Of a stretch of DNA of 64,000 nt, positions 1 to 61,920 are shown in pieces. The stretch is from Escherichia phage vB_EcoM-UFV13. The stretch is taken from sequence record NC_031103.1; one strand, 5' to 3'. The translations under genes and the position numbers were made by a program. The notes under the pieces were generated by a model. That model worked only from the letters and a program-made list of their open reading frames with translations, was not told the DNA's origin and made no database searches. Position 1 is the stretch's first letter. Every line of letters begins with the position of its first letter.

Positions 1-692
1 TCGAAGCTACCGTCAAGCAGCACGCCGTTAAATTAGCTGAATCTCATATCGCTAAAATTGCTGAAAAAGCAGAAGAAGAAGTAGAAAAAAATAAAGAAGA
101 AGCAGAAGAAAAAGCTGAGAAGAAAATCGCTGAGCAAGCTTCTAAATTCATTGACCATCTTGCGAAAGAATGGCTCGCTGAAAATAAATTAGCAGTTGAT
201 AAAGGCATCAAAGCCGAACTGTTTGAATCCATGCTTGGTGGATTAAAAGAGCTCTTTGTTGAACACAACGTTGTTGTTCCAGAAGAATCAGTTGATGTTG
301 TAGCTGAAATGGAAGAAGAGCTGCAAGAACATAAAGAAGAATCAGCTCGTCTGTTCGAAGAACTCAATATGCGCGACGCATATATCAATTATGTGCAGCG
401 TGAAGTGGCATTGAGCGAAAGTACTAAAGATCTGACTGAGTCTCAAAAAGAAAAAGTCTCTGCTCTGGTCGAAGGTATGGATTATTCAGATGAATTCTCA
501 AGTAAATTGAGTGCCATCGTAGAAATGGTGAAGAAGTCTAATAAAGATGAAAGCACTATTACTGAGGGTATAAATACTCCTGATACTGAAGCAGCCGGAC
601 TGAATTTCGTCACTGAAGCTGTAGAAGATAAATCTGCATCTGGTGCAGAAGATATTGTAAGTGTATATGCGAAAGTCGCATCTCGTTTCTAA
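1..692 (+). CDS. 22: prohead core scaffold protein gp22, 5' end outside window
   Basis: Frame beginning at nt 3 translates EATVKQHAVKLAESHIAKIAEKAEEE... and runs into the 231..692 ORF; acidic coiled-coil scaffold sequence directly upstream of gene 23 as in T4. Confidence 0.85.
   Translation, partial: EATVKQHAVKLAESHIAKIAEKAEEEVEKNKEEAEEKAEKKIAEQASKFIDHLAKEWLAENKLAVDKGIKAELFESMLGGLKELFVEHNVVVPEESVDVVAEMEEELQEHKEESARLFEELNMRDAYINYVQREVALSESTKDLTESQKEKVSALVEGMDYSDEFSSKLSAIVEMVKKSNKDESTITEGINTPDTEAAGLNFVTEAVEDKSASGAEDIVSVYAKVASRF
569..576 (+). promoter_or_regulatory. late promoter motif TATAAATA for gene 23, inside gene 22
   Basis: Exact TATAAATA about 135 nt upstream of the gene 23 start. Confidence 0.7.
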
Positions 693-9371: not shown

Positions 9372-9784
9372 TATTTTCCAGCCTCAAATGCTCGCATGTC
9401 TTGAATATGCTTAATAGCAAATCCACGTGATTTGATAGCATCAAGAGCTCCGCTACAGAAATCTAATAAAATTCCCCAATATTGTAATGAAGTATCAACC
9501 TTTAAAACATCCTTATCAGCTGATAGAACTGTCTTCATTTCTGATTTCTCGTAACGATCCATACTAAATTCATCACCATCTCCTCGTCCCGAGTAGTAGT
9601 CTAATTTAGCTTTAAGAGCAACTTTTTTCTGTGCATCAATTCTAAGCATTTCCTTTTTAATACTTGAATGCTTATTAAGCCATTTACTATATAACATCAC
9701 ATTATTAGCTGCTTCATACTGCAATTTAGTCGAATCTATAAACACATCTTTCTTCAATTCTTCTTGAAGATCTTCTAATCTCAT
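9371..9784 (-). CDS. uvsY: recombination mediator UvsY
   Basis: 137 aa, same as T4 UvsY; MotA-box middle promoter upstream. Confidence 0.93.
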   Translation of the reverse strand: MRLEDLQEELKKDVFIDSTKLQYEAANNVMLYSKWLNKHSSIKKEMLRIDAQKKVALKAKLDYYSGRGDGDEFSMDRYEKSEMKTVLSADKDVLKVDTSLQYWGILLDFCSGALDAIKSRGFAIKHIQDMRAFEAGK

Positions 9785-9821
9785 ATTGTTCTCTATTCAA
9801 TTGTTATTGGATGGACTTAGA

Positions 9822-9852
9822 TTCATTATACCACGTTTATACGTGAAGCATT
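9822..9852 (-). promoter_or_regulatory. MotA-dependent middle promoter of uvsY
   Basis: Minus strand ATGCTTCA (MotA box) then 13 nt then TATAAT, about 40 nt upstream of uvsY. Confidence 0.7.
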
Positions 9853-10249
9853 ATACTCTATTACTGGAAGCCAGTTGCAGTTTTATCTGCTCAATATCAT
9901 CAGGATTATCGATGACCGAAAAGCGTATTTCTACTATCAGAGTATAATCATCATAAACCGGTATCACATTAACTGATAATTTATCAATACGTGGCTCATA
10001 GTTTCTTACCGCGCTTTCGATGTTACGCTCAACTGTGTCAGCAGTAAGAGGAGTCATATTTTCAAAAAGCTGGTCTGATAAATCACATCCAAATTCAGGG
10101 TCAAACGGTCTTGAACCTTTTCTTGTTGTAATAATTCCCAAAAGACTGTTTTTAATTGACCTTAATCCAAGAGATCTAGAAACGTCTTTGTCCCAGTCCA
10201 TTTTCATTTCTGGGTCAATGTCAGAATAAAGCTTATTAATATTTGCCAT
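9851..10249 (-). CDS. 25: baseplate wedge protein gp25
   Basis: 132 aa, T4 gp25 length; 1-nt TAATG overlap with gene 26; split Shine-Dalgarno with hairpin upstream. Confidence 0.93.
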   Translation of the reverse strand: MANINKLYSDIDPEMKMDWDKDVSRSLGLRSIKNSLLGIITTRKGSRPFDPEFGCDLSDQLFENMTPLTADTVERNIESAVRNYEPRIDKLSVNVIPVYDDYTLIVEIRFSVIDNPDDIEQIKLQLASSNRV

Positions 10250-10875
10250 TACAATAGCTCAAAGAATTCTTTGAGTCCTCTTATTACATGAGCGTGAGTT
10301 TTTCCACACTCTGGACACTTAATTGGAACAGCCAAATAAACAGTAGGCTTTAAAAGCATATCTTTTATAGCTACAATATCTGACTCTGTGATGATAGAAT
10401 ATAAATCTTCCAGTTCTTTTTCATTTAAGTCTTCAACTGGAATGCTTTCCCCGTTAGCATGAATCGTTTCTATACATGATACTATCATGTGGGCTATATT
10501 TTTATCATCAAAAATTTTAGGGTAATGGAACTTAATTTTAATGTCACCCAGTGTATACCAGAGGTCTTCTGGTGCATCTATTTGTGTATGTAATAGATTT
10601 ATATGGGTTGGTATTTCAGTTCCACAGGTGCACTTCCAGGAGTTTTCGTGATTAACTTCACCAAGAGAATGTGCCCATAAATGAATCAACAATAGTTCTG
10701 ATTCTTGGCGGTTTAAATCTTTTGCATTTGTGCAGTCTTTGATTAGCTTTTTAACAATTACTTCTACGGAACCATTATTTTTGGCAGTAATAAGTTCTAG
10801 ATATTCTTTAAGCGTGAATGCGCGACAATTGATTATTTTAGAACCAACTCTCACGTCAAATTTGTATTCATACAT
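10249..10875 (-). CDS. 26: baseplate hub protein gp26
   Basis: 208 aa; divergent from gene 51 with shared late-promoter region. Confidence 0.9.
10250..10280 (-). promoter_or_regulatory. split ribosome-binding site of gene 25 with intervening hairpin
   Basis: Minus strand GAGGA-CTCAAAG-AATT-CTTTGAG-CTATTGTA-ATG; Shine-Dalgarno lies 26 nt from the ATG unless the hairpin forms. Confidence 0.75.
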
Positions 10876-10896
10876 ATTTAGCTCCTTTATTTATCA

Positions 10897-10908
10897 TATT
10901 TATAAATA
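10897..10908. promoter_or_regulatory. overlapping divergent late promoters for genes 26 (-) and 51 (+)
   Basis: TATTTATAAATA contains TATAAATA on both strands, each followed by AAGGAG and the respective ATG. Confidence 0.7.
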
Positions 10909-10925
10909 GAATAAAAGGAGCATCT

Positions 10926-11675
10926 ATGGCAAACATTATTCGTTGTAAATTACCAGATGGTGTTCATCGTTTTAAACCATTTACGGTAGAAGATTATCGA
11001 GATTTTTTGTTAGTTCGAAACGATATAGAACATCGGTCACCACAAGAACAAAAAGAAGTAATTGCTGATTTAATTGCTGATTATTTTGGAGACTATCCAA
11101 AGACTTGGCAACCATTTATATTTTTGCAGGTATTTGTAGGGTCAATAGGTAAAACTAAAGTACCAGTCACATTTGTGTGTCCAAAATGTAAAAAAGAAAA
11201 GACGGTTCCATTTGAAATATATCAAAAAGAATTAAAGGAACCTGTTTTTGATGTAGCTAATGTTAAAATTAAATTAAAGTTTCCTTCTGAGTTTTATGAA
11301 AATAAAGCAAAGATGATTACTGAAAATATTCATTCTGTTCAAGTAGATGAAATATGGTATGATTGGAAGGAAATTAGCGAGTCCAGTCAAATAGAACTAG
11401 TTGACGCCATCGAGATAGAAACATTAGAAAAAATTCTCGATGCAATGAATCCTATTAATTTAACATTGCACATGTCGTGTTGTAATAAGTATGTAAAAAA
11501 ATACACTGATATAGTAGATGTGTTTAAGCTATTAGTTAACCCAGATGAAATATTTACTTTTTATCAAATTAATCACACACTCGTAAAAAGTAATTATAGC
11601 TTAAATTCAATAATGAAAATGATTCCTGCCGAGCGCGGATTCGTATTAAAACTGATTGAGAAGGATAAACAATAA
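10926..11675 (+). CDS. 51: baseplate hub assembly protein gp51
   Basis: 249 aa; late promoter TATAAATA plus AAGGAG upstream. Confidence 0.9.
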
Positions 11676-26324: not shown

Positions 26325-26354
26325 AACTTTATGCAATCTTTGGAAAATAAAAAA

Positions 26355-26372
26355 GGACTCCCGAAGGAGTCC
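26355..26372 (-). terminator. rho-independent terminator
   Basis: Minus strand GGACUCC-UUCG-GGAGUCC followed by TTTTTTATTTT. Confidence 0.75.
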
Positions 26373-26377
26373 TCAAC

Positions 26378-26554: not shown

Positions 26555-26674
26555 TATAAATTCTCTTTTAAATGAAAATGCAGGACTTATTGGCATTGCC
26601 TGCGCAAGCCCTCAAAGGGGTACTTAGGTTTTGAATATTTACCGACAGGATAACCATAAACCTCGTCAACATAA

Positions 26675-26923
26675 TTACTTCAATGTTACCACAAAGTGAC
26701 GAACTGCTTTTCGTGCAGCAGAAGCCAGAGGCTTAGCATATTTAAGTTCATCTTTTTCCTGAAGCTCAGCAGCTAATGCAGTTTGAGCAGGATTTAGATG
26801 TTTGAAATAACGCAGGATTTCAAGAGCTTCGGCTTCAACATCAATAGATGCGCCATAGTTTTCGTGACCATTATTCCATGCGTTTCGTTGCAGTTCAAGA
26901 GCGTGTTGTAATTGTTTAATCAT
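26675..26923 (-). CDS. rIII: lysis inhibition accessory protein rIII
   Basis: 82 aa, T4 rIII length, position between the 30.x cluster and gene 31. Confidence 0.85.
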   Translation of the reverse strand: MIKQLQHALELQRNAWNNGHENYGASIDVEAEALEILRYFKHLNPAQTALAAELQEKDELKYAKPLASAARKAVRHFVVTLK

Positions 26924-27070
26924 TTAAAAATTCTCGTTAGAGATTAAAACTCGGTAGTCACGTTCTTCTGAATTTCATCTTCTTTCGACAGATCTCTCAG
27001 TTGTAGACTACCACATAGAATTGTTCGGTTAACTTATTATTCCGACACCCAATTCATATTATTATTTATA

Positions 27071-27406
27071 TCACTTATAAAGACACGGAATAGCTTTATA
27101 GTGACAAGTAACGAATTTTTGTTTAATTTCTTTTGGTTGCTTAAGACCCAGAGCTACAAAAGGATGCGGAACATTTCGAATTTGACCAACTGGAAGAGAA
27201 GTCAAATCACCAACTTCGCAGAAACCTTCAGGAACATCAGGACCAACAGAGTGAACTACACACAGTTCAGGAACTTCACCTTGAACACGTTTACCGATAA
27301 TAAGTCCTGATTCTGTAACTTCTTCATCACCGGCTTGTGCAGGTTCAGAAACTAAAATAACATATTCACCGACAGCACGAATTGGTAGCTGTTGTACTTC
27401 AGACAT
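27071..27406 (-). CDS. 31: co-chaperonin gp31 (GroES analogue)
   Basis: 111 aa, recognised T4 gp31 sequence. Confidence 0.95.
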
Positions 27407-27462
27407 CGTTTTTCCTTTTTGTTAACAGATGAATTAATAATAACAAATAATTCTTAAAGCAT

Positions 27463-27771
27463 TTATTTACCAATAAATTGGAGTAAATGCTCAACTTTCA
27501 TACCATTAACAGAAATCAATTTGTCAATAGAAAAACCTCGCCACGCACCAAGTTCAACATCAAATACTGGAATCATGTCAGTAGATTCTTTCCGAGTAGA
27601 TTCAGTCAATTTACCGGTTTGCATAGTTGGCATAAAGTCTGCATCACGAGTACCTTTCATGGTACGAATAGTACCATCAGACTTTTCAAAAACTACGTTT
27701 GAAACACCCATGGACAATTTAGTTTTCAAAATTTCACGAATTGCTACTTTCTGCTCAGTTGTCAGTTTCAT
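27463..27771 (-). CDS. hypothetical protein, T4 31.1 position
   Basis: 102 aa ORF upstream of gene 31. Confidence 0.7.
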   Translation of the reverse strand: MKLTTEQKVAIREILKTKLSMGVSNVVFEKSDGTIRTMKGTRDADFMPTMQTGKLTESTRKESTDMIPVFDVELGAWRGFSIDKLISVNGMKVEHLLQFIGK

Positions 27772-61704: not shown

Positions 61705-61920
61705 AACTTTTTAAAAATATTCGTAATAAATGTGAATACCAACTACTACCGCTGAAACCTGTGCAACCCACCACGCACAAGCAATAAGTACAGAATTAAA
61801 AATTTTCATAATAACCTCATCACAAAAGTAAATGTTAAACAAATTACTGGAATACTAATTAACCAAACAAAACACCACCATAATGAACTCATAGTTCAAT
61901 CTCAACGATTTTCATTTTAC

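Follow-up and report, generated by a model that had tools for sequence, protein, structure and literature searches.

Gene order at the locus

The window analysed here is a stretch of 64,000 nucleotides from Escherichia phage vB_EcoM-UFV13 (NC_031103.1). It is T4-type DNA which shows 99% identity to T4 and its relatives. On the minus strand, the genes cd, 31.2, 31.1 and 31 are followed by a gap of 147 nt and then by rIII. Gene 31 (27071..27406) codes for a GroES-like co-chaperonin of 111 aa and ends with the stop codon TGA at 27073..27071. The rIII coding sequence (26675..26923, 82 aa) starts with the ATG at 26923..26921, which is located 8 nt past the Shine-Dalgarno (SD) sequence. The spacer between the two genes (27070..26924, minus strand) is identical to positions 131034..131180 of T4 (NC_000866).

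An earlier sequence-only reading had described this spacer as a 147-nt gap devoid of ORFs on the minus strand. Its coordinates are exact, and there is no ORF of at least 20 aa on either strand. The same reading had considered the spacer to be unlike most other junctions of the region. The neighbouring junctions are shorter, in that cd/31.2 and 31.2/31.1 abut and 31.1/31 comprises 56 nt, although the junction rIII/30.9 is also long (~120 nt).

Because gene 31 is the upstream cistron, the spacer is intercistronic in early and middle transcripts. The middle promoter P31 has been catalogued with a transcription start at T4 position 131540, which corresponds to ~27430 in the window (PMC2988021). 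A MotA box (aaTGCTTTA, 27463..27455) and a -10 hexamer (TATTAT, 27442..27437) are found on the minus strand upstream of gene 31 and match this catalogued promoter. Further downstream, gene 30.9 is followed by a strong intrinsic terminator (GAGGACUCCuucgGGAGUCCUUUUUUAUUUU; 26374..26353, minus strand), which also accounts for sub-threshold Rfam matches to Atu_C8 and Phe_leader. A terminator after 30.9 is annotated in Mineola.

The late promoter of rIII

An exact 8-bp late promoter box of the gp55 type, TATAAATA, is located at 27063..27070 on the minus strand, directly after the stop codon of gene 31. The sequence-only reading had noted a late-promoter motif at this place, adjoining the gene 31 stop. 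This position is confirmed, the octamer is invariant across genera, and a late promoter of rIII is on record in the literature, which reports early, middle and late promoters for this gene and an accumulation of the RIII protein from 5 to 35 min (PMC9409239). The rIII late promoter as such is already known.

The octamer occurs 13 times in the window as compared to 8.6 ± 3.0 expected copies, an enrichment which is not significant. It is not this count but conservation in relatives that raises the box above chance. Of 51 related loci, 50 have the octamer upstream of rIII and one reads AATAAATA instead. The box is unchanged in all 25 distinct spacers that were aligned, with a fixed distance to the first hairpin and variable flanks. 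The distance to the stop codon of gene 31 varies (overlapping, 0 or +9 nt), with the box overlapping the stop where that of the relatives is TAA.

The late TATA box of T4 is located about one helical turn upstream of the transcription start (PMC2988020). According to this rule, the late transcript is predicted to start with the A at 27057 ± 1-2 nt (27056..27058, minus strand). The sequence just downstream of the box, AAUAAUAU, is AT-rich. No T4 transcription start-site map was found in our literature search. A terminator scan detected no terminator-like site between the late promoter and rIII (26924..27070) and late transcripts should thus continue into rIII.

The predicted late 5' end starts with AUG and opens a mini-ORF of six codons (AUGAAUUGGGUGUCGGAAUAA; 27057..27037, minus strand) inside the first hairpin. 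Among 31 predicted late 5' ends, 19 begin with AUG. The mini-ORFs have 2-11 codons, and eight leaders start with GUA and have no mini-ORF.

Like other T4 late promoters (dependent on gp55, gp33 and gp45), the one of rIII has the exact 8-bp box and an AT-rich downstream sequence and precedes a gene whose expression continues into the late phase. It differs in its leader. The leaders of the other TATAAATA promoters in the window are short (typically 15-25 nt) and devoid of structure, whereas that of rIII has ~134 nt and three hairpins.

A conserved leader with three hairpins

We collected gene 31-rIII junctions from 40 IMG/VR loci and from 12 GenBank phages of named genera. The gene order is kept across these junctions, and the spacer length ranges from 37 to 160 nt. 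A common layout was found in 31 distinct spacers from at least 10 genera: TATAAATA, which is invariant in all of them, is followed after 5-7 nt by a first hairpin (SL1), a short linker, a second hairpin (SL2), an AU-rich strand of 9-10 nt and a third hairpin (SL3). The 3' arm of SL3 is the SD sequence, and the AUG follows after another 7-9 nt.

When folded alone, the spacer of the window is ordinary (-27.1 kcal/mol, z = -0.49). The picture changes when relatives are considered, as each of the 31 leaders separately folds into the same architecture, with a mean z of -3.1 against dinucleotide shuffles and 24 of the 31 below -2. The leader of T4 and of the window is the least stable of them all (z = -0.5), and if only this one sequence had been folded, the element would have escaped notice in T4.

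Covariation was tested on a structure-blind plain MAFFT alignment of 25 distinct spacers, with slid partners and 500 shuffles as controls. In this alignment, 87.1% of the cells are paired, as compared to 35-57% when partners are slid. Two-sided changes are found in 53 cells as compared to 14.6 in shuffles, and none of the 500 shuffles reaches 53. The base of SL2 is paired in 98.7% of the cells and five of its six pairs show compensatory changes. A CM-fitted alignment agrees with this picture. The presence of G-U pairs and the greater stability of sense over antisense folds (Wilcoxon p = 0.005) indicate that the structure resides in the RNA of the rIII strand.

The sequence-only reading had argued that the length of the spacer would allow a structured leader or a small RNA controlling rIII, and had named the lack of any conserved structure as an outcome that would speak against it. 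Folding and covariation analysis across relatives supports the structured leader, with abundant compensatory changes. A small RNA controlling rIII did not gain specific support. That reading is thus partly supported, with respect to late promoter and leader. It had not foreseen the modular structure, the autonomy of the middle hairpin and its occurrence outside rIII leaders, or the pairing of the SD sequence by the last hairpin.

The leader model (CM R1) matches in Tequatro-, Gapriver-, Dhaka-, Moon-, Karam-, Jiaoda-, Winkler-, Teguna- and Bragavirus. R1 found no match in Acinetobacter Lazarusvirus and four other distant loci, which have a canonical terminator, then TATAAATA and then a short leader. 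In loci L034, L036, L039 and L040 and in Abraxas, such a terminator is placed after gene 31 and ahead of the late promoter. A second copy of the leader was not detected by CM in the 64-kb window. No Rfam family (release 15) was found on the spacer at E <= 10 in the window and at E <= 1 in ten relatives. Our results demonstrate a conserved late promoter which is combined with a conserved, modular RNA structure of the sense strand.

The first hairpin and its exchangeable modules

SL1 (27018..27055, minus strand) has the basal stem GAAUUG/CAAUUC, which in T4 can be extended to 27059..27013. A hairpin is present at this place in all 31 distinct leaders, with at least nine different stem sequences, and in the plain MAFFT alignment four of six basal pairs show two-sided changes. 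Only 0-2 unpaired nucleotides separate SL1 from the predicted late start in 31 of 31 leaders. The spacing between TATAAATA and SL1 is fixed while the distance to the stop of gene 31 varies, which ties SL1 to the promoter and the 5' end of the RNA and not to the end of gene 31.

The apical module of SL1, termed M1 (27025..27045, minus strand), consists of a 4-bp stem and a loop, in the window U-CGG aauaauaaguuaa CCG-A, and has the consensus YGGA[AC]N3-9UUA[AC]CCR. Among the loci, M1 is restricted to rIII leaders. It is found in SL1 for most genera and inside SL2 in Winklervirus X20 and in L029. M1 and a further apical module, M2 (GACCAUUAACAGGAU), are carried by SL1 in some phages and by SL2 in others. 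The hairpin "sockets" are conserved, and the apical cartridges of SL1 and SL2 can be interchanged.

Combinations of hairpins also differ between loci. In L014, an SL1 identical to that of T4 is joined to an SL2 variant which is common to L012. In L013, another SL1 (module M6, also found in Dhakavirus) is joined to the SL2 variant of L012 and L014. These combinations point to recombination at the linkers between the hairpins.

A further match to the M1 pattern (TGGAATACTAATTAACCA) is located at 61848..61865 on the plus strand of the window. As ~0.6 matches are expected per window, it is probably due to chance. A scan of viral contigs for the exact 15-mer of M2 returned more than 120 mostly random matches and was uninformative because the pattern is too short.

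The second hairpin, a type A motif

SL2 (26953..27012, minus strand; ~60 nt) represents a motif which we refer to as "type A" and which is matched by its dedicated model, CM R2, at 26950..27015 with 85.6 bits. In the window, the stem P1 (GGUAGUC/GACUACC) is followed by the junction UACAA, the stem P2 (CUGAG/UUCAG) and an internal loop (AGA/UGAAA). The apical part is formed by P3 (AUCU.UC/GA.AGAU) with a GAAA loop, and the remaining junction reads AAGAACGUG. In its general form, type A has a variable P1, an invariant UACAA, P2, the internal loop AGA/UGAAM, a P3 which is mostly capped by GAAA, and an invariant A(A/C)GAACGUG. The internal loops are unchanged across very distant phages.

A weak R1 match downstream of rIII in Citrobacter phage CF1 provided the lead to this motif, which was then defined by pattern scans and by R2. 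The rIII-30.9 spacer of CF1 carries a clear homologue of the core of T4 SL2. In a plain MAFFT alignment of 15 distinct type A sequences, 93.7% of the cells are paired as compared to 30-42% when slid. Two-sided changes affect 12 of 18 pairs, a level reached by none of 500 shuffles.

The string CUGAGAG...GAAA within SL2 is reminiscent of a hammerhead. This was rejected, as CUGAR pairs with YUCAG in P2 and covaries with it, and as there is no Rfam match. More generally, type A shows no likeness to Rfam families (release 15), and its hammerhead-like strings (CUGA...GAAA) are explained by the covarying P2.

Distribution of the type A motif

Each of 908 phage records has type A at a single place, and R2 finds it once in the window. 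Among 60 genome matches that were listed, most have no annotated feature at the motif. Type A is absent from bacteria and archaea (one genome each of 185,579 species), and R2 found no match in the tRNA/rnaC/rnaD region of T4.

In Tequatrovirus and its closest relatives, in Gaprivervirus and, as a shortened variant, in Dhakavirus, type A is SL2 of the rIII leader. In Moon-, Karam- and Jiaodavirus and in Klebsiella phages of the kv_tblp5 type, it is instead part of the 30.9 leader. No copy was located near rIII in Tegunavirus, Winklervirus and Bragavirus. The distance from its end to the downstream start is ~35 nt, irrespective of whether rIII or 30.9 follows.

Where Moon-, Karam- and Jiaodavirus have type A, the window has a plain hairpin, GCAGG-caaugccaauaagu-CCUGC (26603..26580), which is followed by AUUUUCAUUU and located in the rIII-30.9 spacer (26620..26555, minus strand). 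It is preceded by a small hairpin, CCCCUUUGAGGG. With a plain hairpin at the type A place and a small one before it, the 30.9 leader of the window seems to be built on the same socket plan. The window differs from T4 in this spacer, and the alignment to T4 extends only to the end of rIII.

Type A is also found among tRNA genes in L067, L074, L075 and L078, environmental contigs of phages that are not related to T4; in L067, L074 and L078, these tRNA genes are encoded on the same strand. In L078, the motif directly adjoins a tRNA-Thr gene on its 5' side and has no downstream ORF, and its role can thus not be purely translational. In L067, it precedes a DUF2828/TROVE-like gene, and in L074 and L075 its neighbours resemble those of Limnohabitans and Curvibacter phages. 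The neighbours of the L078 copy could not be assigned to a known phage by tblastn. Beside the tRNA cluster of L078, a gene of the TnpB/IS605 OrfB type with a Cas12f1-like TNB domain was observed (9780..11003, minus strand).

The AU-rich linker, the third hairpin, and the translation start

SL2 is followed by the AU-rich linker GAGUUUUAA (26944..26952, minus strand), which has 9-10 nt in all relatives and is unpaired in every minimum-free-energy fold. SL3 (26932..26943, minus strand) reads UCUC-uaac-GAGA, and its 3' arm (26935..26932) is the SD sequence of rIII. In relatives, SL3 has the form CCUC(A)-nnn-(U)GAGG, which differs from the T4-like UCUC/GAGA by one compensatory change from C-G to U-A, with variable loops. 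The hairpin energy ranges from -1.4 to -4.0 kcal/mol (-2.2 in the window), and the SD sequence is predicted to be paired with p >= 0.94 in most relatives and with 0.66 in the window. A hairpin as weak as SL3 may barely affect initiation.

A split TIR as known from the T4 genes 25 and 38 was rejected, as the gap between SD and AUG is 8 nt in the window and the spacing is thus not over-long. An additional hairpin between SD and AUG ("SL4") in Moon- and Karamvirus was rejected as well, because in the CM alignment and in RefSeq the gene starts at an in-frame ATG further upstream, for which the spacing is normal. In L048 and L049 (Karamvirus myPSH1140 and Moonvirus CF1), the annotated rIII has two additional codons at its start (ATG TCA ATG..., 645..650). 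Around this longer start, UGACAUAAUGUCA forms a perfect small palindrome, which would pair the start codon.

According to T4 omics data, rIII belongs to the class with early RNA and middle-phase protein (PMC9697503, supplement). This is compatible with restrained translation, but the class is common to many neighbouring genes and thus not specific to rIII.

Comparison with known RNA elements

The terminal hairpin in the 5' UTR of E. coli ompA was reportedly found by Emory, Bouvet and Belasco in 1992 to be stabilising. SL1 resembles such a hairpin in being 0-2 nt from the predicted 5' end in 31 of 31 leaders. It differs in that it is also contained in longer early transcripts, where it is not terminal.

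For the T4 genes e, soc, 49 and I-TevI, the SD sequence is sequestered in a hairpin within which the late promoter is located, so that late transcripts escape the pairing (PMC3014915). The rIII leader shares with them the SD sequence as the 3' arm of a hairpin (SL3). However, the late promoter of rIII precedes SL3 by ~130 nt, and this hairpin is contained in both classes of transcript. A late promoter within or after the 5' arm is not found at rIII of the window and occurs only in the distant loci L040 and L054. In L054 (Acinetobacter phage Abraxas, ~611..644) and L040, the SD sequence of rIII (GAGA) pairs with a 5' arm which overlaps the TATAAATA box. This pairing would thus close read-through RNA but leave late RNA open, as in the classic design of e, soc and 49, which is absent from rIII of T4.

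The PeSL cassettes of RB49-type phages are repeated copies of a promoter plus stem-loop, with many copies per genome (PMC2839356). They resemble type A in being stem-loop modules of intergenic regions which undergo shuffling between T4-type genomes. Type A, in contrast, is single-copy in the 908 records, and only one leader match was found in the window. A repeated cassette was thus rejected, given one type A copy per record and one CM match in the window. With rnaC, rnaD and other non-tRNA RNAs of phage tRNA clusters, type A shares its location among tRNA genes in L067, L074 and L078. It differs in that R2 does not match rnaC or rnaD and in being an mRNA-leader element in T4-type phages.

A search of literature text for the motif strings returned a cloning primer only. 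Neither rIII nor gene 31 is named in the main review of post-transcriptional control in T4. In the literature that was covered, the structured leader and in particular type A appear to be undescribed. The 1992 rIII paper, which was outside the comparison, may already describe some of the hairpins.

Interpretation and alternative explanations

We consider it probable that the spacer combines the rIII late promoter with a structured 5' leader of ~134 nt, which at the same time separates gene 31 from rIII on early and middle read-through mRNA, and that it exerts post-transcriptional control. The leader would act on mRNA stability, on processing or by tuning of translation. SL1, located at the 5' terminus of the late transcript, might shield the mRNA from 5'-end-dependent decay in a manner similar to ompA. 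SL2 would be a recognition, processing or stability element that is independent of the gene that follows. SL3 would pair the SD sequence, and the adjoining AU-rich strand might represent a standby site for the ribosome or S1. SL3 and this strand together could set a low, context-independent level of rIII translation in long early as well as short late mRNAs.

SL2 might instead be an autonomous RNA gene which is excised from mRNA or tRNA precursors as a small, stable, trans-acting RNA, for example as a decoy or partner of a host or phage protein or nuclease, and whose place in the rIII leader is incidental. This reading, which we regard as rather doubtful, would be consistent with the single copy per genome in 908 records, the flexible location (rIII leader, 30.9 leader, tRNA clusters of unrelated phage contigs), the internal loops that are invariant across very distant phages, and the absence from cellular genomes. 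Also, RNase P would free the 3' end of type A in L078, where it abuts the 5' end of the tRNA-Thr. However, the distance of ~35 nt to the downstream start codon is fixed in all T4-type genomes, which looks cis-acting, and the stable-RNA region of T4 (rnaC/rnaD) does not contain a type A copy. It is unlikely that the hairpins serve as endonuclease processing signals which uncouple the decay of gene 31 and rIII mRNA, with RNase III acting on the irregular SL2 helix of ~18 bp or RNase E in the AU-rich strands. RNase III sites of T7 comprise about two helical turns with internal loops, and SL2 resembles them in both respects. RNase E typically acts in AU-rich single strands with hairpins on either side, and the occurrence of type A in tRNA clusters would fit. 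Yet invariant loop sequences are not a normal requirement of RNase III, and processing overlaps with control by the leader, the explanation that we prefer, rather than excluding it.

It is quite improbable that SL2 and a U-rich linker form a leaky intrinsic terminator or attenuator, which would end gene 31 transcripts or give rise to a late RNA of ~110 nt and thus limit read-through into rIII. Minimal forms of SL2 look terminator-like (phiR1-RT, GGUGGAGuuuuauCUCCACC-UUAUUUUAA), the best 8-nt window after SL2 contains at least five T in 16 of 25 leaders, and in the distant relatives L034, L036, L039, L040 and Abraxas gene 31 is followed by a canonical terminator ahead of the late promoter. But the SL2 stem of T4 encloses an apical domain of 46 nt rather than a loop of 3-8 nt, most linkers start with A residues (AAAUUUUAA), type A in tRNA clusters has no U tract, and the scan of 26924..27070 was negative. 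Being placed after the promoter of rIII itself, a terminator would moreover defeat that promoter. SL2 was thus rejected as a terminator, as its features are inconsistent across relatives and as a compact hairpin with an immediate U tract is lacking. We regard it as highly improbable that type A is a put-like RNA which modifies RNA polymerase in cis for passage through the strong terminator after 30.9. Type A is located upstream of 30.9 and this terminator in every T4-type genome examined, whichever leader contains it, but this argument is purely positional, there is no likeness to known put RNAs, and the tRNA-cluster contexts would be unexplained. It is barely conceivable that the spacer is a neutral relic or just encodes a very short ORF (AUGAAUUGGGUGUCGGAAUAA) where the late transcript is predicted to begin. 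The T4 leader itself folds no better than shuffles, and AUG is found at 19 of 31 predicted late 5' ends. Both readings are disfavoured by the covariation, given the extensive compensatory changes; furthermore, the ORFs have just 2-11 codons, are missing in the eight leaders with a GUA start, and the spacer has no ORF of at least 20 aa.

Beyond the control of rIII by its leader, we tentatively propose that type A may be a new class of autonomous phage RNA, a possibility that we hold to be clearly short of likely. It would be present as one copy per genome, as a cartridge that moves between leader "sockets" and tRNA clusters, and would be recognised via its invariant loops (UACAA, AMGAACGUG and GAA) by a protein or nuclease of phage or host.

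Implications for T4-type phages

T4 is a reference system for phage gene regulation, yet the leader and its motif are missing from Rfam, from most of the annotations listed and from the main review. An RNA which is supported by covariation, has invariant loops, is single-copy in ~900 sequenced phages and is also present in unrelated environmental phages points to an RNA-protein or RNA-nuclease interaction that has gone unrecognised. If type A is indeed such an RNA class, the leaders in the gene 31-rIII-30.9 region would be a shuffling site for RNA cartridges, with M1 and M2 behaving alike. rIII is an accessory gene of lysis inhibition, and the RIII protein binds ribosomal protein S1. The leader provides a handle on how a controlled level of rIII expression is obtained from early, middle and late transcripts.
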